64,000 bases of DNA from positions 1 through 64,000 of the forward strand of contig OY970309.1 of the NCBI GenBank assembly GCA_963716395.1, given 5' to 3'. Positions 1 to 14,235 of the stretch are shown piece after piece; position 1 is the first letter of the stretch, and each line of letters begins with the position of its first letter. The notes under the pieces are model-generated. The model ran no database searches, was not told where the DNA came from, and saw only the letters and a program-made list of their open reading frames with translations. The stretch is from an uncultured Fibrobacteria bacterium (GTDB lineage: Bacteria; Fibrobacterota; Fibrobacteria; UBA11236). Position numbers and translations under genes: made by a program.

Positions 1-84
1 AAATAAATACAAGCACCATTTTTTTGGTGAGGTGCCCAAACGTACAACCCTATTTTTGAATTGGGTTAAACGTATGTTTTGCAC

Positions 85-334
85 GCATAACGCCGCGCTG
101 AGCCGCGAACCCGAACGGGTTTGCGGAGAAGTGGCGGCGGTAGATGAGTTGAGCCGAGCGGGCGCTCGCAGCATTGAAAATCGAGCGCAGCGAGATTTTC
201 GAGCCTGCGAGCAAGGTTTGGCGTGCGGTTCGCGGAAGGCGGCGAGCTTGCGAGCGGTTGCTTTCCGCGAACCCCGCCAAACCGCCCCCGAGGCTCCCCG
301 GCGAGGGTTCGCCGGTTCGAGCGCGTTGTTATGT
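85..334 (-). repeat. attC site, giant 250-bp type (belongs to family A cassette 328-610)
   Basis: GCATAAC...GTTATGT. Outer arms pair (CGCGCT/AGCGCG, GAGCC/GGTTC, GCGAACCC/GGGTTCGC) with unpaired G and C on the + (bottom) strand. Confidence 0.88.
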
Positions 335-603
335 TGAAACGGGTAGACCATGTTTTATTTTCATATTAATTGAAATATCGTTATTGAGCGCGAAATTATC
401 TGTTTTAAATGGGACCGAGGCAAAATAATTGGAGCCGCAAATTGAATTGGTTTTGTTTCGCTTCATATCGTTATATCGTAAATCTGGGCGCGGGGCTTTG
501 TATTTACATTGTCATTATTTGGTTTTAATAGCAACGGGCAGATCATTGAACGGCAAAACTCTGACCCAATTGCGTGACCACGAAGAGTTAGTCTGGGTTT
601 GCA

Positions 604-853
604 ACATAACGCCGCGCTGAGCCGCGAACCCGAACGGGTTTGCGGAGAAGTGGCGGCGGTAGACGAGTTGAGCCGAGCGGGCGCTCGCAGCATTGAAAAT
701 CGAGCGCAGTGAGATTTTCGAGCCTGCGAGCAAGGTTTGGCGTGCGGTTCGCGGAAGGCGGCGAGCTTGCGAGCGGTTGCTTTCCGCGAACCCCGCCAAA
801 CCGCCCCCGAGGCTCCCCGCCGAGGGTTCGCCGGTTCGAGCGCGTTGTTCTAC
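604..853 (-). repeat. attC site, giant 250-bp type
   Basis: ACATAAC...GTTCTAC, near-identical to 85-334. Confidence 0.88.
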
Positions 854-1119
854 AGATGCATTTATTATTCATTGATCGCGCCGATTTAATTGAATTTAAA
901 TTTTTTAATCGCTCTGCTGTCAAAAATTGGGTAGCAACTCGAATTGGTTTTCCCGGCGCGTTTCTGAGAAAAGGCTTTAAATAGCACGAAATGATTTGGC
1001 TTTTGCATTTGCGCCGTGCCCACGCATTACACCTTTTAATTGAGCGAATTTATTTTTGTAGTTGAGTTAACTTCATTAATGGTAATGCCAGTTCTCAATA
1101 ATCACGGCGCCATAATACT

Positions 1120-1369
1120 GTAGAACGCCGCGCTGAGCCGCGAACCCGAACGGGTTTGCGGAGAAGTGGCGGCGGTAGACGAGTTGAGCCGAGCGGGCGC
1201 TCGCAGCATTGAAAATCGAGCGCAGCGAGATTTTCGAGCCTGCGAGCAAGGTTTGGCGTGCGGTTCGCGGAAGGCGGCGAGCTTGCGAGCGGTTGCTTTC
1301 CGCGAACCCCGCCAAACCGCCCCCGAGGCTCCCCGCCGAGGGTTCGCCGGTTCGAGCGCGTTGTTCTAC
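1120..1369 (-). repeat. attC site, giant 250-bp type
   Basis: GTAGAAC...GTTCTAC, near-identical copy. Confidence 0.88.
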
Positions 1370-1610
1370 AGATGCATTCATTTTCGCGCCGGTTTAATAT
1401 TTTTTCCTGACTAAAGGTAATCATAAGATCAAATTGGTTTTCCCGGCGCGCTTCTGAGTGAATGCTTTAAATAGCACGAAACTGATTTGGTTTTTGCATT
1501 TGCGACGTGCCCGCGCATTACACTTCATCAGTGAGCACATTGATCTTTGTAGTTGAGATGAACTCAATCCAAGCATTACCCACTCTCAGTAAGCACGGCG
1601 CCATAATACT

Positions 1611-1860
1611 GTAGAACGCCGCGCTGAGCCGCGAACCCGAACGGGTTTGCGGAGAAGTGGCGGCGGTAGACGAGTTGAGCCGAGCGGGCGCTCGCAGCAT
1701 TGAAAATCGAGCGCAGCGAGATTTTCGAGCCTGCGAGCAAGGTTTGGCGTGCGGTTCGCGGAAGGCGGCGAGCTTGCGAGCGGTTGCTTTCCGCGAACCC
1801 CGCCAAACCGCCCCCGAGGCTCCCCGCCGAGGGTTCGCCGGTTCGAGCGCGTTGTTCTAC
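1611..1860 (-). repeat. attC site, giant 250-bp type
   Basis: GTAGAAC...GTTCTAC, near-identical copy. Confidence 0.88.
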
Positions 1861-2104
1861 AGATGCATTCATTGTTCGCGCCGGTTTAATATTTTTTCCT
1901 GACTAAAGGTAATCATAAGATCAAATTGGTTTTCCCGGCGCGCTTCTGAGTGAATGCTTTAAATAGCACGAACTGATTTGGTTTTTGCATTTGCGACGTG
2001 CCCACGCATTACACCTTTATAATTGAGCGACATTAATTTTTGTAGTTGAGTTAACTTCAATTAATGGTAATGCCAGTTCTCAATAATCACGGCGCCATAA
2101 TACT

Positions 2105-2253
2105 GTAGAACGCGCGCGCTGAGCCGCAAGGCGTCGAGCGGGGTGGAAACCCCGCGGTCGGCGCGCTAGATTGCGTTGAGCCGAACGGTTGATCGCGAAG
2201 AACAGCCAAACGGCGTGACGACAACGCGAGACGGTTCGAGCGGCTTGTTATAC
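2105..2253 (-). repeat. attC site, shorter divergent 149-bp type (belongs to cassette 2247-2760)
   Basis: GTAGAAC...GTTATAC. Shares outer arms (GCGCTGAGCCGC...GGTTCGAGCG) with the giant type but lacks its two large internal hairpins. Confidence 0.75.
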
Positions 2254-2760
2254 AATTTTTTTCAGTGAGCATTTTTTAGAATTGTATATTATATTGCCGA
2301 ACCGCATTCACATTTCCACTAACTCGCACCAATTTGCATAGTCCAGTTCCAACTATTCGGGATCTCAACAGGTTCGACCCGGAAACTATATTTAATGCCT
2401 CTGTTATTGCCGATCTAAGCATTTCGCATGTGTTCGCAGATCACATTCATTGAAATAGCGCTTTATTTTAAAATATTTTCCAATCAATATTTAAATCAAT
2501 CGCGAGTCAAAATATTTCGCCTTGGTTGCCAATATTCTGATTTTTGTCTTGAATCTAGCATTGAATCACTATTGGTTCCGAACTATGACAGTGATTTCAT
2601 GGCACTCGGGATTTCCTGTTTTCATCTTCAAATTAGCGGTCGCAACGATTCTTTGGTCGCCACCACATCATCTTTTGATAGCATTTCAAGGATATCAATT
2701 TTATCTTTGAAATGTAAATATCGATTATCAAGGTACTACGTTATTTTTCATTCGTATAAC
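2247..2760 (-). pseudogene. Unique ~510-bp cassette with a broken, gene-like AT-rich sequence
   Basis: GTTATAC...GTATAAC ends, with an ATG right after the core on the minus strand. Protein-like stretches (e.g. YLDNRYLHFKDKIDILEMLSKDDVVATKESLRPLI) are interrupted by frame changes and stops. Confidence 0.45.
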
Positions 2761-3015
2761 GCCGCGCTGAGCCGCGAACCCGAACGGGTTTGCGGAGAAG
2801 TGGCGGCGGTAAGATGAATTACGAGCCGAGCGGGCGCTCGCAGCGATTGAAAATCGTAGCGCAGCGAGAATATTTCGAGCCTGCGAGCAAGGTTTGGCGT
2901 GCGGTTCGCGGAAGGCGTGCGAGCTTGCGAGCGGTTGCTTTCCGCGAACCCCGCCAAACCGCCCCCGAGGCTCGCTCGCCGTTTAGGGTTCGCCGGTTCG
3001 AGCGCGTTGTTCTAC
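2754..3015 (-). repeat. attC site, giant type with many small indels (262 bp)
   Basis: GTATAAC...GTTCTAC; same sequence as the other copies with scattered 1-3 nt insertions. Confidence 0.82.
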
Positions 3016-3256
3016 AGATGCATTCATTGTTCGCGCCGGTTTAATATTTTTTCCTGACTAAAGGTAATCATAAGATCAAATTGGTTTTCCCGGCGCGCTT
3101 CTGAGTGAATGCTTTAAATAGCACGAACTGATTTGGTTTTTGCATTTGCGACGTGCCCGCGCATTGCACTTCATCAGCGAGTACATTGATCTTTGTGGTT
3201 GAGATGAACTCAATTTGAGCATTACCCACTCTCAGTAAGCACGGCGCCATAATTCT

Positions 3257-3506
3257 GTAGAACGCCGCGCTGAGCCGCGAACCCGAACGGGTTTGCGGAG
3301 AAGTGGCGGCGGTAGACGAGTTGAGCCGAGCGGGCGCTCGCAGCATTGAAAATCGAGCGCAGCGAGATTTTCGAGCCTGCGAGCAAGGTTTGGCGTGCGG
3401 TTCGCGGAAGGCGGCGAGCTTGCGAGCGGTTGCTTTCCGCGAACCCCGCCAAACCGCCCCCGAGGCTCCCCGCCGAGGGTTCGCCGGTTCGAGCGCGTTG
3501 TTCTAC
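3257..3506 (-). repeat. attC site, giant 250-bp type
   Basis: GTAGAAC...GTTCTAC. Confidence 0.88.
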
Positions 3507-3774
3507 AGATGCATTTATTATTCATTGATCGCGCCGATTTAATTGAATTTAATTTTTTAATCGCTCTGACTGTCAAGGTAATTAGGTAGCAACTCGAATT
3601 GGTTTTCCCGGCGCGTTTCTGAGTAAATGCTTTAAATAGCACGAAATGATTTGGCTTTTGCATTTGCGCCGTGCCCACGCATTACACCTTTTAATTGAGC
3701 GAATTGATTTTTGTAGTTGAGTTAACTTCATTAATGGTAATGCCAGTTCTCAATAATCACGGCGCCATAATACT

Positions 3775-4024
3775 GTAGAACGCCGCGCTGAGCCGCGAAC
3801 CCGAACGGGTTCGCGGAGAAGTGGCGGCGGTAGACGAGTTGAGCCGAGCGGGCGCTCGCAGCATTGAAAATCGAGCGCAGCGAGATTTTCGAGCCTGCGA
3901 GCAAGGTTTGGCGTGCGGTTCGCGGAAGGCGGCGAGCTTGCGAGCGGTTGCTTTCCGCGAACCCCGCCAAACCGCCCCCGAGGCTCCCCGCCGAGGGTTC
4001 GCCGGTTCGAGCGCGTTGTTCTAC
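3775..4024 (-). repeat. attC site, giant 250-bp type
   Basis: GTAGAAC...GTTCTAC. Confidence 0.88.
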
Positions 4025-4265
4025 AGATGCATTCATTGTTCGCGCCGGTTTAATATTTTTTCCTGACTAAAGGTAATCATAAGATCAAATTGGTTTTCCC
4101 GGCGCGCTTCTGAGTGAATGCTTTAAATAGCACGAACTGATTTGGTTTTTGCATTTGCGACGTGCCCGCGCATTGCACTTCATCAGCGAGCACATTGATC
4201 TTTGTGGTTGAGATGAACTCAATTTGAGCATTACCCACTCTCAGTAAGCACGGCGCCATAATTCT

Positions 4266-4515
4266 GTAGAACGCCGCGCTGAGCCGCGAACCCGAACGGG
4301 TTTGCGGAGAAGTGGCGGCGGTAGACGAGTTGAGCCGAGCGGGCGCTCGCAGCATTGAAAATCGAACGCAGCGAGATTTTCGAGCCTGCGAGCAAGGTTT
4401 GGCGTGCGGTTCGCGGAAGGCGGCGAGCTTGCGAGCGGTTGCTTTCCGCGAACCCCGCCAAACCGCCCCCGAGGCTCCCCGCCGAGGGTTCGCCGGTTCG
4501 AGCGCGTTGTTCTAC
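4266..4515 (-). repeat. attC site, giant 250-bp type
   Basis: GTAGAAC...GTTCTAC. Confidence 0.88.
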
Positions 4516-4781
4516 AGATGCATTTATTATTCATTGATCGCGCCGATTTAATTGAATTTAAATTTTTTAATCGCTCTGCTGTCAAAAATTGGGTAGCAAC
4601 TCGAATTGGTTTTCCCGGCGCGTTTCTGAGAAAAGGCTTTAAATAGCACGAAATGATTTGGCTTTTGCATTTGCGCCGTGCCCACGCATTACACCTTTTA
4701 ATTGAGCGAATTTATTTTTGTAGTTGAGTTAACTTCATTAATGGTAATGCCAGTTCTCAATAATCACGGCGCCATAATACT

Positions 4782-5031
4782 GTAGAACGCCGCGCTGAGC
4801 CGCGAACCCGAACGGGTTTGCGGAGAAGTGGCGGCGGTAGATGAGTTGAGCCGAGCGGGCGCTCGCAGCATTGAAAATCGAGCGCAGCGAGATTTTCGAG
4901 CCTGCGAGCAAGGTTTGGCGTGCGGTTCGCGGAAGGCGGCGAGCTTGCGAGCGGTTGCTTTCCGCGAACCCCGCCAAACCGCCCCCGAGGCTCCCCGGTG
5001 AGGGTTCGCCGGTTCGAGCGCGTTGTTATGT
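4782..5031 (-). repeat. attC site, giant 250-bp type
   Basis: GTAGAAC...GTTATGT. Confidence 0.88.
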
Positions 5032-5301
5032 TGAAACGGGTAGACCATGTTTTATTTTCATATTAATTGAAATATCGTTATTGAGCGAGAAATTATCTGT
5101 TTTAAATGGGACCGAGGCAAAATAATTGGAGCCGCAATATTGAATTGGTTTTGTTTCGCTTCATATCGTTATATCGTAAATCTGGGCGCGGGGCTTTGTA
5201 TTTACATTGTATTTATTTGGTTTTAATAGCAACGGGCAGATCGTTGAACGGCAAAACTCTAACCCAATTGCTTGACCGCGAAGAGTTAGTCTGGGTTTGC
5301 A

Positions 5302-5551
5302 ACATAACGCCGCGCTGAGCCGCGAACCCGAACGGGTTTGCGGAGAAGTGGCGGCGGTAGATGAGTTGAGCCGAGCGGGCGCTCGCAGCATTGAAAATCG
5401 AGCGCAGTGAGATTTTCGAGCCTGCGAGCAAGGTTTGGCGTGCGGTTCGCGGAAGGCGGCGAGCTTGCGAGCGGTTGCTTTCCGCGAACCCCGCCAAACC
5501 GCCCCCGAGGCTCCCCGCCGAGGGTTCGCCGGTTCGAGCGCGTTGTTCTAC
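5302..5551 (-). repeat. attC site, giant 250-bp type
   Basis: ACATAAC...GTTCTAC. Confidence 0.88.
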
Positions 5552-5814
5552 AGATGCATTTATTATTCATTGATCGCGCCGGTTTAATAATTTATTTTTT
5601 ACTCTGACTTCAAAGGTAATTGAGTAGCAGATCAAATTGGTTTTCCCGGCGCGCTTCTGAGTGAATGCTTTAAATAGCACGAACTGATTTGGCTTTTGCA
5701 TTTGCGCCGTGCCCACGCATTACACCTTTATAATTGAGCGAATTGATTTTTGTAGTTGAGTTGAACTTCATTAATGGCAATGCCAGTTCTCAATAATCAC
5801 GGCGCCATAATACT

Positions 5815-6064
5815 GTAGAACGCCGCGCTGAGCCGCGAACCCGAACGGGTTTGCGGAGAAGTGGCGGCGGTAGATGAGTTGAGCCGAGCGGGCGCTCGCA
5901 GCATTGAAAATCGAGCGCAGCGAGATTTTCGAGCCTGCGAGCAAGGTTTGGCGTGCGGTTCGCGGAAGGCGGCGAGCTTGCGAGCGGTTGCTTTCCGCGA
6001 ACCCCGCCAAACCGCCCCCGAGGCTCCCCGGTGAGGGTTCGCCGGTTCGAGCGCGTTGTTATGT
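5815..6064 (-). repeat. attC site, giant 250-bp type
   Basis: GTAGAAC...GTTATGT. Confidence 0.88.
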
Positions 6065-6333
6065 TGAAACGGGTAGACCATGTTTTATTTTCATTTTAAT
6101 TGAAATATCGTTATTGAGCGAGAAATTATCTGTTTTAAATGGGACCGAGGCAAAATAATTGGAGCCGCAAATTGAATTGGTTTTGTTTCGCTTCACATCG
6201 TTATATCGTAAATCTGGGCGCGGGGCTTTGTATTTACATTGTTTTTATTTGGTTTTAATAGCAACGGGCAGATCGTTGAACGGCAAAACCCTAACCCACT
6301 TGCTTGACCGCGAAGAGTTAGTCTGGGTTTGCA

Positions 6334-6583
6334 ACATAACGCCGCGCTGAGCCGCGAACCCGAACGGGTTTGCGGAGAAGTGGCGGCGGTAGATGAGTTG
6401 AGCCGAGCGGGCGCTCGCAGCATTGAAAATCGAGCGCAGCGAGATTTTCGAGCCTGCGAGCAAGGTTTGGCGTGCGGTTCGCGGAAGGCGGCGAGCTTGC
6501 GAGCGGTTGCTTTCCGCGAACCCCGCCAAACCGCCCCCGAGGCTCCCCGGCGAGGGTTCGCCGGTTCGAGCGCGTTGTTATGT
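6334..6583 (-). repeat. attC site, giant 250-bp type (first cassette after attI)
   Basis: ACATAAC...GTTATGT. Confidence 0.88.
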
Positions 6584-6852
6584 TGAAACGGGTAGACCAT
6601 GTTTTATTTTCATATTAATTGAAATATCGTTATTGAGCGCGAAATTATCTGTTTTAAATGGGACCGAGGCAAAATAATTGGAGCCGCAAATTGAATTGGT
6701 TTTGTTTCGCTTCACATCGTTATATCGTAAATCTGGGCGCGGGGCTTTGTATTTACATTGTCTTTATTTGGTTTTAATAGCAACGGGCAGATCATTGAAC
6801 GGCAAAACTCTAACCCACTTGCTTGACCGCGAAGAGTTAGTCTGGGTTTGCA

Positions 6853-6875
6853 ACATAACGATCTTATTAACCATT
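6853..6875 (-). other. Putative attI site
   Basis: The last cassette ends in CAACATAAC but is followed by unique sequence instead of an attC. The minus strand reads GGTTAATA-AGATC-GTTATGT (G/TT crossover), located 5' of the integrase. Confidence 0.7.
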
Positions 6876-7460
6876 TCCAATGTTCATCTGTTCCAGTTGC
6901 AAGGTCCTAAGTATAAGCCTCAAATTATTCCCACATTCCCGCTTTTTACAAGCTCTCGGCTCCTTATCCTGTTTCCATTAAACATCCTCAAATTTGAATC
7001 AAATGGATCCAGTCGCTGTTGGTCAAAGGTTCAGGAAGCATAGCCAATCATGCCTTAAAAGGGAAATTTGAAGGCCTGATTTGCTCGACAAAAACGTTCA
7101 GAAGCTTGGCCGCTTATATTAACCACCTCCATCTTTAACCTGTCTTGGATTTTTTTCGGATTCTTGGCTTCGATCCATTTTCATTCTTGGACAGCGAGAA
7201 TGTGCCCGGAATCACATCTTCTTTTTTGCGAAGTCGATATCCTTTGGCCTTCAACGCGGTGAAGGGAATGGAAATTATGCAGCGGAAAAATGCTAGGTCA
7301 GGCAGAACCCAATTCAACGGAAATTTTCCGGAAAAAGGCGGAACGAAACTAAGAACCTCGGCGAACCCCCGCGAGCTGCCAAGCGGTAAAGGCGAGGTCT
7401 TGTCTTTACCGCGTTATCGAAGGGAAATTCACTTCTCAACGCAAATACAAGTCCATCATT

Positions 7461-9008
7461 TTGACCAAGCTTCGGTGGTTTGAAATGAATTCGAGACCTT
7501 CGACCCGGGTATCTCTTGCAATCCGGCTGGGCAATAAGAAAAAACATGAGGAACTCATTATCCGGGTGGTGATTAAACTTGCGCGTACCTCGGTCCGGAA
7601 ACGCGGCAATGGAATTTGGCTTTTTGCCGGACACGTATCCGAAGGCGTCGGGCCTTTTGATCAGGATATTTATCAACAGCTACGCGACAAATTTCAACGG
7701 GCTTTGGAAGTCAATAAATCGATTTCAAAAGGTTCTGTCCCATATTATCACAAATGGGCTCGTGATTATTTAACGTGGTGCGACTACCAAAAATCGGATC
7801 CGCGTCGGTACGAAAGCATCGATTTTTTTTTGCTTTCAATGTGGGATTCTGGGCATAAGGGAATTGATTTGCGACAGGCCAACGATGCGATTCAAATTCT
7901 GTTTCGCTTGCTGGCTGCACCGGATGAGAAGCCTCCCGAAAAGCTCGGCGAAGAGTCTTCGATGCCAATCCAAAAACCCATCGCTTTGCCCGAAGTTGCG
8001 CAGGAGAAAACCTCTATTCCGCGGCAAAATCCCAGCGGCCTTGAACCGGCCAATTGGACCGAGGCTTGGGAAAGCCTGGAAAGGGAAATCAAATGGCGGC
8101 ATTATTCGCGCAAAACTTTGAAGGCCTACCGACATTGGTCGGAAAGGTTTTGCGAATTCGTGAATCATAAGCCACCGGTCAGCGTGAGTGCGTCGGATGC
8201 CAAGGCCTTTCTCGCGCATTTGGCATTGCGGAAAGCGGTTTCGGCGGCGACCCAGGATCAGGCGTTCAACGCCTTGCGGTTTTTCTTCATCCATGCGCTG
8301 CACAAGGATTACGGCGGCCTCTCCGATACACCCCGTGCGCGCAAGCGGCCCGCAGTTCCCACCACCTTGGGGCGCGACGAGGTGGCGCGACTGCTGGCGC
8401 GGCTTTCCGCGCCGCATGATTTGGTGTCGGCCATGCTGTATGGCTGCGGGTTGCGGCTATCGGAGGCCATCGGGTTGCGCGTGCAGGATCTCGACTTTGC
8501 CTCGGCCCATGTCTTGGTGCAATTCGGCAAGCGGGGTAAGAGCCGGGCGGTGCCCTTGCCGACCCGCCTCAAAGATCGTCTTTCAGCCCATCTGGAATTG
8601 GTGCACCGTGGGCATGCAAAGGATCTCGCACAAGGTTATGACGGGGTCTTTTTGCCTGAGGATTTGGGAAAGAAATATCCGGGGGCGGCCAAGGAATGGC
8701 CCTGGCAGTGGGTTTTTCCAGCGCAGCACCTGGTCGCGGTACCGGAGACCGGGCAACATCGACGTTACCATGTGCACGAAAGCGGTGTGCAGCACGCCAT
8801 TCGCCAGGCGGTGGCAGGATTAGGCTTTTCCCAACGGGTATCGGCCCACACTTTGCGCCACAGTTATGCCACGCATCTGCTGCAAGCGGGCTACGACATC
8901 CGCACCATCCAGACCTTGCTGGGGCATTCCGACGTGAAGACCACCATGATTTACACCCAGGCCATGCGCCCCACGCCGCGGCGCGCAATCAGCCCCATGG
9001 ATTTATGA
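7461..9008 (+). CDS. intI: Integron integrase A with N-terminal extension (start uncertain: TTG 7461, ATG 7485 or later)
   Basis: Tyrosine-recombinase residues YGCGLR, K, HTLRHSYATH, LGH and TTMIY, plus the integron-specific insertion (KYPGAAKEWPWQWVFP...RRYHVHES). Confidence 0.93.
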   Translation: MTKLRWFEMNSRPSTRVSLAIRLGNKKKHEELIIRVVIKLARTSVRKRGNGIWLFAGHVSEGVGPFDQDIYQQLRDKFQRALEVNKSISKGSVPYYHKWARDYLTWCDYQKSDPRRYESIDFFLLSMWDSGHKGIDLRQANDAIQILFRLLAAPDEKPPEKLGEESSMPIQKPIALPEVAQEKTSIPRQNPSGLEPANWTEAWESLEREIKWRHYSRKTLKAYRHWSERFCEFVNHKPPVSVSASDAKAFLAHLALRKAVSAATQDQAFNALRFFFIHALHKDYGGLSDTPRARKRPAVPTTLGRDEVARLLARLSAPHDLVSAMLYGCGLRLSEAIGLRVQDLDFASAHVLVQFGKRGKSRAVPLPTRLKDRLSAHLELVHRGHAKDLAQGYDGVFLPEDLGKKYPGAAKEWPWQWVFPAQHLVAVPETGQHRRYHVHESGVQHAIRQAVAGLGFSQRVSAHTLRHSYATHLLQAGYDIRTIQTLLGHSDVKTTMIYTQAMRPTPRRAISPMDL

Positions 9009-10360
9009 GCGGTAAGGAGTCGTTCCCGGCCGAGGAGGTTTGTCCGGCGCCGGCATTTATTTTTTCGGAATCCGGCGCCGCGTTGACGCCGGATGCATCC
9101 GGATTGAGGGATATGGAAAACGGTTTGTTCGCCCAGGCGGAACGCGATTTTGCCGCGGAGTTGGAGCGCGATGCGGCCGTTCCGTCGCATCATCGGCCTC
9201 ACTATACAAGGTGGTTGTCGGCCTTTTTGGAAAACTGCCGCGAACTGGAAATTCCGCCCGCAGAAGCCGGCGCCTGGGAAGGGTTTGAAAACCGGATGCG
9301 CCAAAACACCCGGCCTGAATTTCAGATCGCGCAGGCCCGCCGGGCCGTGGAAAAGTTTTTGGGCATGGCTCCCGCAACTCCCCCGCCGGCCGAATCCGAA
9401 ACGCCGCAGGATTGGCCTTCGGCGTTCGCGGCCCTGACCGCGGCCATTCGCCTGCGCAATTATTCGGAGAAAACGCTGAAGTCCTACCAGCATTGGGTGC
9501 GCGGCTTCTGCGGCTTTTGCAAAAGATCGGTGGCTGAAATCGCCTCGCCCCACGCCAAGGATTATTTGACGCATCTGGCCGTGGACCGCCAGGTATCGGG
9601 TTCGACGCAGAACCAGGCCTTCTCGGCGCTGTTGTTTTTCTTCACCGTCGTGCTGCAGCGCGAGTTAAAGAACATGCAGGACACGCCGCGCGCCAAGCGC
9701 CGCGAAAACGTGCCCACGGTGTTGAGCCGCGAAGAGGTGCGGACCGTGCTCTCGGGGTTGCGGCCGCCGTTCGACCTGTTCGCGCGCCTGTTGTACGGAT
9801 GCGGCTTGCGGCTGCAAGAGGCGCTTTCGTTGCGCGTGCAGGATCTCGATCTCGATGCCGGATTGCTGGTGGCGTTCAACACCAAGGGTTCGAAAAGCCG
9901 CCGCCTGCCTTTGCCCGAGAGCTTGCGTCCGGAGCTGGGCGCGCATCTCGCCGCGGTGCGCGGTCTGTTTGCGCAGGACTTGGCCCTGGGGTTCGCCGGC
10001 GTCTTTCTGCCCGCCGCGCTGGAAAAAAAATATCCGGCCGCGGCCACGGAGTGGCCCTGGCAATGGGTTTTTCCCGCCGGGCAATTGACGCCCGTGGAAG
10101 GCGGCGGCCTACGGCGTTATCACCTGCATGAAACCCGCGTGCAAAAAGAAATGCAGGCCGCGGTGCGCGCCGCCGGCCTTTCCAAACGGGCCACGGCGCA
10201 TACTTTGCGGCATAGCTACGCCACGCATTTGCTGCAAATGGGCTATGATATCCGCACCGTGCAGGAATTGTTGGGGCACCACGATGTGACCACGACCATG
10301 GTGTATACGCATGCCGTGCAAACCCTGGCGGGAAAAATCGTCAGCCCCTTGGACCTTTGA
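9005..10360 (+). CDS. intI: Integron integrase B with N-terminal extension (start ATG 9005 overlapping the stop of integrase A, or ATG 9113 after GAGGG)
   Basis: YGCGLR, HTLRHSYATH, LGH, TTMVY; KYPAAATEWPWQWVFP...RRYHLHETRVQK integron insertion. Confidence 0.93.
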   Translation: MSGKESFPAEEVCPAPAFIFSESGAALTPDASGLRDMENGLFAQAERDFAAELERDAAVPSHHRPHYTRWLSAFLENCRELEIPPAEAGAWEGFENRMRQNTRPEFQIAQARRAVEKFLGMAPATPPPAESETPQDWPSAFAALTAAIRLRNYSEKTLKSYQHWVRGFCGFCKRSVAEIASPHAKDYLTHLAVDRQVSGSTQNQAFSALLFFFTVVLQRELKNMQDTPRAKRRENVPTVLSREEVRTVLSGLRPPFDLFARLLYGCGLRLQEALSLRVQDLDLDAGLLVAFNTKGSKSRRLPLPESLRPELGAHLAAVRGLFAQDLALGFAGVFLPAALEKKYPAAATEWPWQWVFPAGQLTPVEGGGLRRYHLHETRVQKEMQAAVRAAGLSKRATAHTLRHSYATHLLQMGYDIRTVQELLGHHDVTTTMVYTHAVQTLAGKIVSPLDL

Positions 10361-10668
10361 GGGGATCCGGCTTCGCGCGCTGAACCCATCTATTTGGCGG
10401 AAGCAAAAAGGCGCAGACGCGCAAAGCGAGTGCGAATACGGCTGGAAAACCGGTCACCCGAGGAGGCTGGCTGCAAACCTGCCGCGCACGGGAAATCGCC
10501 CCCTGGGGAGGATTTTGGGAGATTGAGACTATGTCTTGATCTTTTGCGGCGCAGAGTCTATGATTGTTTTGTCGGGTCGAACCGGCCGAGGTGGATAGCA
10601 GGAAAAAACGGAAATAGCGATAGAGCCAGCAACAGGTTTAGAAATGCAGATGAAGCAACGAGGAAGCC

Positions 10669-10956
10669 ATGGTTAAAATCACCCCGCGCGGAATTTCCGC
10701 TGCGTTTCCCGGGATCCTCGCCGCCGGCAGCTTGTTGACCTTGGATCGTCTGCCCCGCGGCCTGCGCGCCATCATCCACCGGCTGGAAACCGACGGATCG
10801 CTTAAGACCCATTTGCTCGAACTTGGATTCGTGCCCGGAAGCCCCGTGTCGTTCCTGATGAGCACCCCGTTTGGGGATCCGAACGTCTACGCGCTGCGCG
10901 GAACGTCTTTCGCGCTCCGGAAAAACGAAGCCCGATGCGTGGTCGTGACGATTTAG
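10669..10956 (+). CDS. feoA: Ferrous iron transport protein A
   Basis: LLELGFVPG...PFGDP...LRGTSFALRKNEA FeoA signature, upstream of feoB. Confidence 0.88.
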   Translation: MVKITPRGISAAFPGILAAGSLLTLDRLPRGLRAIIHRLETDGSLKTHLLELGFVPGSPVSFLMSTPFGDPNVYALRGTSFALRKNEARCVVVTI

Positions 10957-12872
10957 CCTCCCTTCCCCTGGTCGCCTTGGTGGGCGCCGCCAACTCCGGC
11001 AAGACCACCTTATTCAACCTCATCACCGCCTCGCATTACGACACGGTGAATTATCCGGGGTCGACGGTGGAATTCACCTTGGGCGAGGCGGCGCGTTTGC
11101 CCGGCTTTCCCTGCCGGGTCATGGATACGCCGGGGCTTTCGAGCCTAGCGGCCGTGAGCCCCGATGAACGGGTCACGGTGAACGCCCTGTTCGACGGCAC
11201 GCATCGCCCCGATCTGGTGGTATGCGTGGTCGACGGCAACCAGCTTTCGCGCCATCTCTATCTCGCGCGCCAATTGCAGGCGGTCGGCTTCGCCGTGGCC
11301 GTGGCCGTCACCATGCAGGATCGCCTGCGCAGCCGCGGTTTGCAACTCCATGTGGATCGGCTGTCCGAATTGATCGACTGCCCGGTGCTGGCCCTCGATC
11401 CCCGGCAGCGCACGGCGCTGAAACCCCTCGAAGCCATGCTGATCCGGACCCGGCAGGCGGCCGGCGATCGCGCCTGCCCCGAAGCCGAAAGCCTGCGGCG
11501 CACGGTGGCGACGTTCGATGAGGAACGCATCGAACAGGTTTTCCGCGCCCTGGATGCGGTGGAAAAGATCGCGGTGCAACCCGCCGGTCCCCCGGGAGCG
11601 GCGCCGCCAACCCGCACGCCGTTTTCCGTCGACCGCATTTTGCTGCACCCGGTGCTGGGTCTAGTGCTGTTCCTGCTCGTGATGACGGCCATCTTCACGT
11701 CGATCTTCTGGCTGGCCGCGCCCTTTATGAATGCGATTGATGCCGGTTTCGGCTGGGCTATTTCGGCCCTAAAAACCCATCTCCCCGCCACGTGGGCCAC
11801 GGATTTTCTCGCCGACGGCCTCATCGGCGGCATCGGGGCCGTGGCGGTCTACGTGCCGCAAATCCTGATCCTGTTCGTGGCCATGGGCTATCTCGAAGAC
11901 TCCGGGTATCTGGCGCGCGGCGCGGCGTTGGTGGACAAGCCCCTTTCCAAAATCGGCCTGAACGGCAAGTCGTTCGTACCGTTACTTTCGGGTTACGCTT
12001 GCGCCATCCCCGCCATGATGGCAGCGCGCACCATTTCCAACCGCGCCGAGCGCAACCTGACCTTGCTCGTCATTCCCATGATGAGCTGCAGCGCGCGGCT
12101 GCCCATCTACACCTTGCTGCTGGCGTTTCTCCTGCCGCAGAACAAACCCTGGATCGGCGGCCTGGCGCTGACCGGGCTGTATGTGCTGGGCATGGTGCTG
12201 GGCGCCATCATTTCCACCGTGGCCTCGCGCTTCATCCGCAGCGGGGAGGCGTCGCGCTTCATCCTGGAATTGCCCGCCATGAAAAGGCCCGTGTTCCGCG
12301 TGGTGTTGTCTTCGACCTACCACAAAACCATGGTCTACGCGCGCAAGGCGGGCCTGGCCATCGTGATCATCTCCTCGGCCCTGTGGGTTTTGACCCATAC
12401 GCCTTCCCCGCACATGACCGGCCCCGACCCCGACTACGTGACCCTGTCGCATTCCTATGCCGCCGACATCGGGCATGTCATCGAGCCCATCACCCGGCCC
12501 ATGGGGCTGGATTGGCGCGGCGGCGTGGCCCTGATTTGCGGCACGGCGGCCCGCGAGGTTTTCGTCAGCGCCCTGGCCCTGGCCTACCGTGTGCACGGGG
12601 AAAAAGACAAGGGCCTGACCGGCCACCTGCTGGCGGCCATGCCGTCCCTGCGCTTCGAAGACACGGGGCAGCGCATTTTCACCACGGCTTCGAGTCTGGG
12701 GCTGCTGGTGTTTTACATCATCGCCCTGCAATGCTTCGCCACCGTGGCCGTGGCGCGGCATGAAATGGGATCGTGGAAGCTGGCCATCGGGCAGTTGGTT
12801 TTGTTTACCGGCACGGCCTATGCATTGGCGGTGGCCACCGTACAGGGCTTGCGGGCCCTGGGAGTGGCCTGA
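10935..12872 (+). CDS. feoB: Ferrous iron transport protein B
   Basis: GAANSGKTT, NYPGSTVE and DTPG GTPase motifs; LEDSGY..R, GYACAIP and MSCSARLP membrane motifs. Confidence 0.95.
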   Translation: MRGRDDLASLPLVALVGAANSGKTTLFNLITASHYDTVNYPGSTVEFTLGEAARLPGFPCRVMDTPGLSSLAAVSPDERVTVNALFDGTHRPDLVVCVVDGNQLSRHLYLARQLQAVGFAVAVAVTMQDRLRSRGLQLHVDRLSELIDCPVLALDPRQRTALKPLEAMLIRTRQAAGDRACPEAESLRRTVATFDEERIEQVFRALDAVEKIAVQPAGPPGAAPPTRTPFSVDRILLHPVLGLVLFLLVMTAIFTSIFWLAAPFMNAIDAGFGWAISALKTHLPATWATDFLADGLIGGIGAVAVYVPQILILFVAMGYLEDSGYLARGAALVDKPLSKIGLNGKSFVPLLSGYACAIPAMMAARTISNRAERNLTLLVIPMMSCSARLPIYTLLLAFLLPQNKPWIGGLALTGLYVLGMVLGAIISTVASRFIRSGEASRFILELPAMKRPVFRVVLSSTYHKTMVYARKAGLAIVIISSALWVLTHTPSPHMTGPDPDYVTLSHSYAADIGHVIEPITRPMGLDWRGGVALICGTAAREVFVSALALAYRVHGEKDKGLTGHLLAAMPSLRFEDTGQRIFTTASSLGLLVFYIIALQCFATVAVARHEMGSWKLAIGQLVLFTGTAYALAVATVQGLRALGVA

Positions 12873-13185
12873 CCCGCTGGCCGGGAGTTCCCGGGAGCGG
12901 CGCGTAACCACCCCATTTTATCACCATGTTATATGGTTGATACCTCGGACGCGTCCGCGGGTGAATTTCCGCCGGCGGTGTAACCGACGCGGGATTCGGC
13001 CCGCTTGCGCCCCGCGCATTTCCGCTCCGGCCTTCTTGGCGACACGTTTGCGACAGAATACACACCTGGGAACATTTCGCGCTCCGCATGCATTGACGGC
13101 ACTCCGCACAGAATCAAAATTTCAACCGCTCACACGGCCTTCACGCAACCCAGGTTCGTGAAATCCCGCTTTGGGTAACCTAGGC

Positions 13186-14235
13186 ATGACGTCCGGCTTC
13201 CAGCCCAAGTTCACGATTACCCACCGCATCGTGGCGGCGCTCAGCAATTTCGATCGGCTCAAAGGCTTTCTCGAAGGCGCGGCTTTTCTGCCGGAGCGGG
13301 TGCGGGAAACGCGGCAGCGCGCCTGGGTGCGCCAGGCCCACCATACCACCCGCCCCGAAGGCACACCGCTTTCCCTGGAACAGGCCGCGCGCTTGTGGGA
13401 AGGCGAAACCCTGCCCGAAGCCGATGCGCGCGCCGCCCGCGAATTATTGAATTACCGCGAAGCCTTCCGCCTCGGCATTGACCGGGCCCGGGCGGGAACA
13501 CCCGTCGGCGCAGAGTTGTTCCGCGACTTGCACCGCCTGCTGATGCAAGACCTGCCCGAAACCACGGGCCGCATCGGCGCCTACCGGCGCGTGCAGAACT
13601 ATGTGGTGGACGCGCAATCGGGTCTTAATTTGTTCACCCCGCCGCCTCCGGACGGGGTGCCGGACCTCATGGAAGACCTGGTGCATTGGTTGAACCACAC
13701 TCCGGAAATCCATGCCGTGTTGGTGGCCGGCATTGCAAAATTCCGGCTGAACTACATTCACCCCTTCCGCGACGGCAATGGGCGCCTAGCCCGCCTGTTT
13801 TCCCTGCTGTGGCTGCAGCGCTGCGGCTATGACGTGCGCCGGATGGTCTTGCTGGGCGAACGCTACGATCGCGATCGCGGCGCCGCCTATGCGGTCATCA
13901 CCCGGGCCGAACAAAACGGGCAGGACCTCACCGAATGGCTGGAATTTTTCACCGAAGGCTTGGGCTCGCAATTGCAGGAAATGAAAGACTATTGGAACGC
14001 GTCGGCGCGCGTCGACCAGTTGCGGCGCGAGCATCTGTTGTCGGCGCGCCAGGCGGGCGCCCTGGAACTTATCTGGAAAAACCACGCGATGAATATCCGC
14101 CAATACGAAGCGGTGCATCCGGGCGTGAGCCGGCGATCCCTGCAACGGGATTTGAAAAAACTGGTGGAGATCGGTTTGCTGCAGGTGGAAGGCGGCACCC
14201 ATCAAACCGTCTACCGATGGAAAAATTCCGCCTGA
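13186..14235 (+). CDS. Fic family protein with C-terminal HTH
   Basis: HPFRDGNGRLAR catalytic motif; N-terminal TTRPEG inhibitory-type motif; SRRSLQRDLKKLVE HTH. Confidence 0.9.
   Translation: MTSGFQPKFTITHRIVAALSNFDRLKGFLEGAAFLPERVRETRQRAWVRQAHHTTRPEGTPLSLEQAARLWEGETLPEADARAARELLNYREAFRLGIDRARAGTPVGAELFRDLHRLLMQDLPETTGRIGAYRRVQNYVVDAQSGLNLFTPPPPDGVPDLMEDLVHWLNHTPEIHAVLVAGIAKFRLNYIHPFRDGNGRLARLFSLLWLQRCGYDVRRMVLLGERYDRDRGAAYAVITRAEQNGQDLTEWLEFFTEGLGSQLQEMKDYWNASARVDQLRREHLLSARQAGALELIWKNHAMNIRQYEAVHPGVSRRSLQRDLKKLVEIGLLQVEGGTHQTVYRWKNSA

Follow-up and report, generated by a model that had tools for sequence, protein, structure and literature searches.

Sedentary chromosomal integrons of Vibrio, exemplified by the V. 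cholerae superintegron with its VCR sites and by the integron of V. vulnificus, combine an integron integrase (IntI) and an attI site with a long array of cassettes separated by near-identical, species-specific, branched attC sites. The excerpts of the published accounts drawn on here describe paralogous non-coding cassettes that make up 6–49% of Vibrio cassettes, with one family of 45 copies, and for which selfishness has been proposed (Boucher et al., PMC1382264), as well as 25 sedentary chromosomal integrons, out of 30, in which the leading-strand template carries the attC bottom strands (PMC5371416). Integrons of Treponema, in the available part of their description, have attC sites that range within one clade from 63–68 to 115–132 bp, the long sites being 92–96% identical (PMC3607928). 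Here we describe an integron in a window of 64,000 nucleotides at the start of one 3.75-Mb contig (59.8% GC) from an uncultured soil bacterium of the Fibrobacteria (OY970309.1), in which a repeat array occupies bases 1–6859 and two tandem integrase genes, intI-A and intI-B, stand beside it.

The locus shares with the Vibrio integrons an IntI, an attI site, a long array with near-identical branched attC sites, many paralogous non-coding cassettes and bottom strands on the leading-strand template (PMC1382264 and PMC5371416, as excerpted). Unlike them, it carries no recognisable gene in any of its 13 visible cassettes, has its intI genes in tandem and adds an N-terminal domain to each IntI, and its long attC sites measure 246–258 nt against the 120–129 nt that the same excerpts give for most sites in sedentary integrons (PMC5371416). 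What is unusual is the combination of giant attC sites, 13 of 13 gene-less visible cassettes, coupled paralogous intI genes and an extra N-terminal integrase domain, and an earlier note on this DNA, made from the letters alone, was right to call it an atypical integron on these grounds. We favor, at a probability of roughly 0.65, the reading that this is a sedentary chromosomal integron working by the canonical mechanism and overgrown by cassettes without open reading frames (ORFs), which are most likely selfish passengers with possible promoter or small-RNA side functions.

Cassette array

The array comprises 13 complete cassettes and one cut by the contig start, and it meets a putative attI at a junction at 6858/6859; the earlier note likewise had 13 cassettes and a putative attI. 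Cassette size, equal to start-to-start spacing, is 491–649 nt, about half of it attC. Twelve of the 13 complete cassettes belong to two cargo families, A (four copies, 283–284 nt) and B (eight copies, 255–282 nt), each with an attC of 246–258 nt; the other cargo consists of one unique 514-nt sequence and one partial unique sequence at 1–91. The features run as follows.

1–90, minus strand: partial distal cassette, unique cargo ending ...GCACGCATAA, unlike A and B and single copy in the genome
91–609, minus strand: cassette 1, family A cargo 328–610, 246-nt attC 87–332
610–1125, minus strand: cassette 2, family B1 cargo 847–1126, 246-nt attC 606–851
1126–1616, minus strand: cassette 3, family B2 cargo 1363–1617, 246-nt attC 1122–1367
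1617–2110, minus strand: cassette 4, family B cargo 1854–2111 (B1/B2 mosaic), 246-nt attC 1613–1858
2111–2759, minus strand: cassette 5, unique 514-nt cargo 2247–2760, different 145-nt attC 2107–2251
2760–3262, minus strand: cassette 6, family B2 cargo 3009–3263, 258-nt attC variant 2756–3013
3263–3780, minus strand: cassette 7, family B1 cargo, 246-nt attC 3259–3504
3781–4271, minus strand: cassette 8, family B2 cargo, 246-nt attC 3777–4022
4272–4787, minus strand: cassette 9, family B1 cargo, 246-nt attC 4268–4513
4788–5307, minus strand: cassette 10, family A cargo, 246-nt attC 4784–5029
5308–5820, minus strand: cassette 11, B1-like mosaic cargo, 246-nt attC 5304–5549
5821–6339, minus strand: cassette 12, family A cargo, 246-nt attC 5817–6062
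6340–6858, minus strand: cassette 13, adjoining attI, family A cargo 6577–6859, 246-nt attC 6336–6581
6859–6930, minus strand: putative attI, junction fixed at 6858/6859 from the sequence, extent towards intI presumed
6924–6951, minus strand: candidate Pc, promoter-like TTGTAA, 16 nt, AATAAT, reading towards the cassettes, with only 9 of 12 consensus positions matched

No ORF of at least 15 amino acids (aa) is kept in every copy of family A or of family B, in agreement with the earlier description of both families as lacking a conserved ORF. Family B cargo is 71–100% identical between copies, which fall into subtypes B1 and B2 plus two mosaics and differ by indels of 1, 2, 4, 6, 7 and 9 nt, which include lengths that are not multiples of three. 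An Rfam scan of positions 1–12000 gave no match at E ≤ 1, and Pfam gave none for four of the long ORFs, all of which extend into an attC. The longest minus-strand ORF of cassette 5 has 48 aa, and a plus-strand ORF of 129 aa (2428–2817) has no Pfam match. Held to the rule of one, usually promoterless, ORF per cassette, 0 of the 13 complete cassettes carry a conserved or family-assignable ORF.

The cassettes lie on the minus strand and lead away from intI, with the plus strand as the recombinogenic bottom strand. This orientation follows from three independent features. First, the array ends on the intI side in cargo and without attC, at 6858/6859, where it reads ...GCAACATAA / C GATCTTATTAACC with the slash at the junction. 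Second, attC variants pair with the cargo on their right: all 4 sites with CCCCGG[C/T]GAGGG are followed on the right by family A cargo, all 7 with CCCCGCCGAGGG by family B cargo, and to the left of the unique 514-nt cargo stands the unique 145-nt site. Third, the extrahelical G of the predicted folds marks the plus strand as the bottom strand. The locus thus shows a single cassette orientation and an attI adjoining intI, the attI being defined by the junction alone. Between the junction and the earliest intI-A start, window positions 6860–7460 form an interval of about 600 bp, long for an attI–intI spacing, and the two ORFs within it have no Pfam match.

By genome-wide GC skew, replication starts near 1.16 Mb and terminates near 3.24 Mb, and these positions put the bottom (plus) strand of the attC sites on the leading-strand template. 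Together with 98–100% identical attC sites and chromosomal neighbors, this is the profile of a sedentary chromosomal integron. Past the intI genes the window continues with ordinary chromosomal genes for FeoB, Fic, a PAS histidine kinase, an M18 peptidase and an Na/H exchanger. All 13 occurrences of the attC arms in the 3.75-Mb genome are inside the array, and family A and B cargo is likewise confined to it. Scattering of the repeats through the genome, which the earlier note had named as fatal to its view, is thus not seen: every copy adjoins intI.

The array is already underway at the first contig base, so it is probably longer than the 13 visible cassettes and the partial one. Within it, a two-cassette block of about 1010 bp is duplicated in tandem, 3009–4020 being 99% identical to 4018–5027. 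The far end of the contig (G000:C1, about 3751800–3754783, outside the window) holds an IS21-type transposase gene split by a group II intron, which is itself cut by the contig end and whose reverse-transcriptase ORF and domain V-like sequence are on the minus strand. With the array at one end and the IS21 gene and intron at the other, the contig is thus bounded on both sides by repeated or mobile DNA. A Fic/DOC-family protein gene lies at window 13171–14235, 2.8 kb downstream of intI-B.

attC sites

The 13 attC sites, with ends fixed by pattern, comprise eleven of 246 nt, one of 258 nt (2756–3013) and one of 145 nt (2107–2251). Their GC content is 63–67%, against 35–43% in the cargo and 59.8% in the genome. 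The repetition greatly exceeds what chance would give: the eleven 246-nt sites differ in 6 of 242 columns and the attC sites are 98.3–100% identical; the 145-nt site has the same arms as the long sites and a different interior. All 13 start ...AAC and end GTT..., the pairing R boxes (inverse core R'' and core R'). The predicted plus-strand fold has an R stem of 9 bp where a site is flanked by its own cargo, an unpaired spacer of 2–3 nt between R and L (2 unpaired bases on either side), a 6-bp L stem CGCGCT/AGCGCG (L box GCGCT/AGCGC), a single extrahelical G on the 3' arm with an unpaired TT 7–8 nt downstream, and a branched terminal domain of about 200 nt. These elements follow the layout that the accessible text of Bouvier 2009 (PMC2727003) gives for attC bottom strands, namely an extrahelical G in L'', a T 6–8 nt downstream and an unpaired central spacer, with terminal structures that range from 3 nt to branched forms.

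The DNA fold is far more stable than that of shuffled sequences (z = -5.96; 0 of 200 shuffles as good), and pfold, here the share of the ensemble with R and L paired under DNA parameters and a constraint definition specific to this analysis, is 0.34–0.92 over the 12 long sites. Judged on these predicted folds, the sites pass every structural attC criterion tested, and length alone falls outside. Against a described range of 57–141 bp (PMC5371416, as excerpted), twelve sites measure 246–258 nt and one 145 nt; the long sites are nearly twice the published maximum, and the oversize is confined to the branched terminal structure. In the literature searched, with supplements and subscription journals outside its coverage, we found no description of attC sites above 200 bp, of tandem intI genes or of an N-terminally extended IntI.

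Integrases

The two integrase genes lie in tandem on the plus strand, with longest-ORF bounds of 7461–9008 and 8696–10360 and the following gene structures.

7485–9008 (alternative start TTG 7461), plus strand: intI-A, extra N-terminal four-helix domain at about 7659–7934, then canonical IntI
9005–10360, plus strand: intI-B, ATG overlapping the intI-A TGA stop as ATGA, extra N-terminal domain at about 9116–9391

Both products are integron integrases by NCBIfam TIGR02249, a model that covers the IntI-specific insert and has a curated cut-off of 265 bits (IntI-A 343.3 bits, IntI-B 363.1 bits), and both also match Pfam PF00589 and PF13495. Each carries the motif KYPxAxxEWPWQWVFP of the IntI-specific WPWQWVFP region and a complete catalytic set, the columns R232, K257/K260, H362, R365, H388 and Y397 being invariant in a 14-sequence alignment (A1) that includes both; the two tandem, intact integrases of the earlier note are therefore borne out. 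Their reported lengths of 515 and 554 aa fare differently. For IntI-A 515 aa from TTG 7461 is possible, next to 507 aa from ATG 7485; the start of intI-B is most likely ATG 9005, which gives a protein of 451 aa, and 554 is the longest-ORF value. As the two proteins are only 44% identical, we take them to be old paralogues and not the outcome of a recent duplication.

A typical IntI has about 320–340 aa and a single N-terminal SAM-like domain. IntI-A and IntI-B, at 507–515 and 451 aa, add a second, diverged SAM-like four-helix domain. In an AlphaFold model of IntI-B (mean predicted local distance difference test, pLDDT, 86) the best Protein Data Bank match is V. cholerae IntIA, 2a3v (E 2.8e-25, target-based template-modeling score 0.80, 317 aligned columns with 38% identity). 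That structure, bound to a folded attC bottom strand, shares with the window integrases the catalytic residues and the IntI-specific insert and has no counterpart to their N-terminal four-helix bundle and linker.

The extension amounts to about 100–190 N-terminal residues in total, a four-helix SAM-like bundle and a linker, in which about 90 conserved residues precede the usual SAM-like domain of both integrases and the linker between them varies. The IntI-B model shows it as four helices at residues 2–84 (pLDDT 85–92), then a disordered linker, then the canonical four-helix domain. PF13495 has a weak, sub-threshold match to the IntI-A extension (E 3.4e-4, profile positions 1–78 of 85), and because the same Pfam family thus reappears, the extension is read as a diverged duplicate of the core-binding (SAM-like) domain. 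The intI-A segment encoding it (window 7461–8000) has 45–48% GC against about 60% in the rest of both intI genes, which suggests a different history or a different constraint.

The extension also marks a large IntI subfamily of at least 635 clusters. In a library of 1.84 billion proteins, a profile of the conserved block matched 635 cluster representatives when the limit was E ≤ 1e-10 and 2665 when it was E ≤ 0.001; the block stands at or near the N-terminus in the 150 best profile matches listed, and 9 of 10 full-length matches tested are IntI above the TIGR02249 cut-off. A profile was needed to find these relatives: tblastn with the N-terminal extensions returned nothing at E ≤ 1e-5 in 160 loci, 80 of them the metagenome loci closest to IntI-B and 80 diverse genome loci.

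Relatives and metagenomes

An IntI above the TIGR02249 cut-off is present in 18 of 41 genomes (the window's own and 40 relatives), and the extension block in 13 of 14 other IntI open frames from related genomes. The exception is the downstream integrase of a congener, G002, which has a tandem intI pair 68 nt apart, the upstream gene extended and the downstream gene of canonical length. This downstream IntI groups with IntI-B (support 86/82), with no resolution on the A side of the tree. Tandem pairs with both members above the cut-off also occur in 3 of the 80 metagenome loci (L136, L140, L194) and in 0 of the 80 diverse genome loci; the three metagenomic pairs have no N-terminal-extension match at E ≤ 1e-5, and upstream of them there is no attC array and no long repeat. 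At L140, five tandem 28-nt repeats (CCTGCTCTTCGC.CC.GCCGGACCTGA) occupy positions 1064–1231 just upstream of the pair. At L125, L121, L149 and L194, a shorter Xer-like tyrosine recombinase stands beside IntI on the same strand and scores 179–193 bits, below the cut-off, so that integron platforms show recombinase pairs of a second kind.

The window's attC sites and cargo recur in none of the 38 other genomes searched within the order, many of them fragmented metagenome-assembled genomes in which repeats often stay unassembled. The relatives' intI loci show no similarity to either, and metagenome_contigs holds no exact copy of a 23-nt attC arm. Contigs of most relatives end 1–4.5 kb upstream of intI, and attC lengths come only from assembled arrays: 64 nt in the congener G008 and, within the same family, 141–167 nt in G014 and in G019 and about 208 nt in G021. 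The length variation of Treponema attC sites parallels this range of 64–258 nt in the window lineage; unlike the window array, the Treponema sites reach at most 132 bp and the cassettes bear genes, in the text available (PMC3607928). In the two related arrays whose ORFs were listed, those of G008, with its 64-nt attC sites, and G014, the cassettes hold ORFs of 125–441 aa in the expected orientation. Extension-bearing relatives with short sites and ORF cassettes mean that extended integrases also serve ordinary gene cassettes and short sites.

Being lineage-wide in the one case and recurrent in the other, the extension and the tandem arrangement are not tied to giant attC sites or to a gene-less array, and sequence comparison presents them as traits of the lineage with no adaptation to giant sites. 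Three broader proposals of the earlier note find no support in these comparisons. Integrases adapted to oversized attC folds are at odds with an extension that 13 of 14 related frames share and that occurs with attC sites of 64–208 nt; the shuffling of non-coding modules in place of gene capture fits poorly with the extended-IntI arrays of G008 and G014; and a distinct system is hard to reconcile with sites that have canonical attC features, with tandem pairs that recur in G002 and in 3 of 80 metagenome loci, and with the Vibrio precedent as excerpted (PMC1382264).

Among public runs, pieces of the stretch appear in only four soil-metagenome runs of one study, at shares of 0.06–0.18, and in no RNA run. 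In the short-read contigs of one of them (run X1), a 212-nt attC piece has a depth of 63 against 9–32 for cargo pieces, and five soil contigs continue from attC or cargo into sequence outside the window. These data support a real multi-copy state and hint at more cassette types, although the source sample may be among the runs and unassembled stretches of this very array may have supplied the extra pieces. Soil contigs leave most of 6941–10400 uncovered and contain no joints, and are uninformative on expression or absence.

Discussion

The platform and the sites are canonical, and we therefore take IntI-mediated excision and reinsertion as the basic mechanism. IntI would excise a cassette through attC × attC recombination of folded single strands, and the excised cassette would be reinserted at attI (6858/6859) through attC × attI recombination. 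The 246–258-nt sites would be attC sites of the ordinary type in which the variable terminal structure expanded to a branched domain of about 200 nt, and the short, AT-rich, ORF-less A and B cassettes would have multiplied through attC sites that fold very well. Homologous recombination, by RecA-type unequal crossing-over and gene conversion, probably also raises copy number, because a near-identical 246-nt sequence recurs every 500 bp, because the attC sites are 98.3–100% identical against 71–100% for B cargo with its mosaics, and because a two-cassette block of 1010 bp is duplicated in tandem at 99%.

Several observations weigh against this account. No recombination product, neither a circle nor an empty site, has been seen, and IntI action on a 246-nt site is a conjecture; the attC sites lie far outside the published range, with a terminal structure of about 200 nt; and the attI junction is about 600 bp from the earliest intI-A start. 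The same attC stands beside other cargo in metagenome contigs, and gene-bearing cassettes may lie beyond the contig start. In family A, the most variable codon of a 39-aa ORF varies synonymously (GTC, GTA, GTT). In family B, a core of about 90 nt is kept much better than its flanks, and a two-part hairpin is conserved with one compensatory change; the core and hairpin hint at a function beyond pure selfishness.

The family A and B features belong to the main rival to selfish passengers, a regulatory or stabilizing role for the cassettes, in which A and B would be functional modules whose copy number is selected, for instance because they stabilize the array or drive transcription through it, with A as a small toxin-antitoxin-like or membrane-peptide module with its own promoters and B as a structured RNA or protein-binding DNA. 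Promoter or other integron-serving roles have been raised for non-coding cassettes in the excerpted text of Boucher 2006 (PMC1382264). The 39-aa ORF of family A (MGPRQ...IYIVIIWF, plus strand) has a hydrophobic tail and is intact in 3 of 4 copies, yet it is frameshifted in the fourth, runs antisense to the cassette direction and lacks a Shine-Dalgarno sequence. Promoter-like hexamers occur on both strands of every A copy, including upstream of this ORF, but the DNA is AT-rich, the matches cover 9 of 12 positions and all of them derive from just three sites; family A RNA folds no better than shuffles (z +1.0, +1.9). Family B RNA folds with z values of -2.1 and -2.3 and has 2 compensatory pairs on each strand, a covariation signal of low power, as each family comprises only three or four different sequence types. 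Neither family has an Rfam or Pfam match or a homologue in the 38 related genomes, and we judge functional modules unlikely.

A relic array, in which the integrases no longer act on the sites and copy number changes by homologous recombination or replication slippage alone, would account for the 1010-bp tandem duplicate, the B1/B2 mosaics and the homogenization of attC sites to 98–100% identity, and bottom strands on the leading-strand template would limit folding. Such a relic would hardly be expected to keep both intI genes intact and coupled or the full site geometry with high pfold. A and B are interleaved and do not form pure blocks, and the same attC beside other cargo in metagenome contigs speaks weakly in the same direction, coming from one study and possibly from the same array. 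We regard a relic as quite unlikely.

A specialised two-recombinase system is still harder to sustain. IntI-A and IntI-B would act together as an XerC/XerD-like heterotetramer, their extra domains gripping the oversized attC sites and amplifying non-coding modules. XerC/XerD and Tn554-type tandem tyrosine recombinases likewise place two paralogous tyrosine recombinases side by side; unlike in those systems, both partners here are bona fide IntI, and a need for both or a hetero-complex is purely hypothetical. The ATGA overlap points to translational coupling of intI-A and intI-B, the two are old paralogues that both retain all catalytic residues, G002 has the same order, its A-like gene preceding the one of the B clade, and the extra domain is modeled with confidence as a four-helix bundle of the DNA-binding SAM-like type. 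Set against this, the extension co-occurs with attC sites of 64–208 nt and, in the arrays of G008 and G014, with cassettes that bear ORFs; it is missing from the downstream IntI of G002; the three metagenomic pairs gave no match to it at E ≤ 1e-5 and showed no long repeats upstream; and tree support for orthology of the pairs is modest. We hold this reading to be highly improbable.

An assembler's expansion of a few units, suggested by a contig that starts inside the array, where the assembler evidently struggled, and by copies that are 100% identical, is barely credible in view of the structured differences between copies (cargo types A, B1 and B2, mosaics between them, one unique cassette, the 258-nt site and cargo-linked attC variants) and of the short-read depth of attC in run X1, a run with no contig on the integrase region and among those that may include the source sample.

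A bolder idea, which we consider rather improbable, is that in integrons of this lineage the coupled IntI-A and IntI-B form a two-subunit recombinase with extra DNA-binding domains and that a branched 250-nt attC with about 250 bp of cargo is a gene-free, self-propagating, "attC-first" integron parasite. If true, it would give a handle on the birth of attC sites and cassettes and on the limits of attC size, and integron finders run at their defaults with an attC size cap would class such loci as integrase-only.

The favored sedentary-integron reading carries implications of its own. Sites of about 250 nt with a fold predicted to be strongly recombinogenic stretch the accepted attC range of 57–141 bp. 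The default attC limit of the usual detection program is 200 nt, and with sites above it such integrons would be under-counted. The extended IntI subfamily, with its hundreds of clusters, and the recurring coupled pairs offer leads on how integrases read their sites. The gene-less array is an extreme of the puzzle posed by the non-coding cassettes of Vibrio, and a small, clean system in which to probe selfishness.

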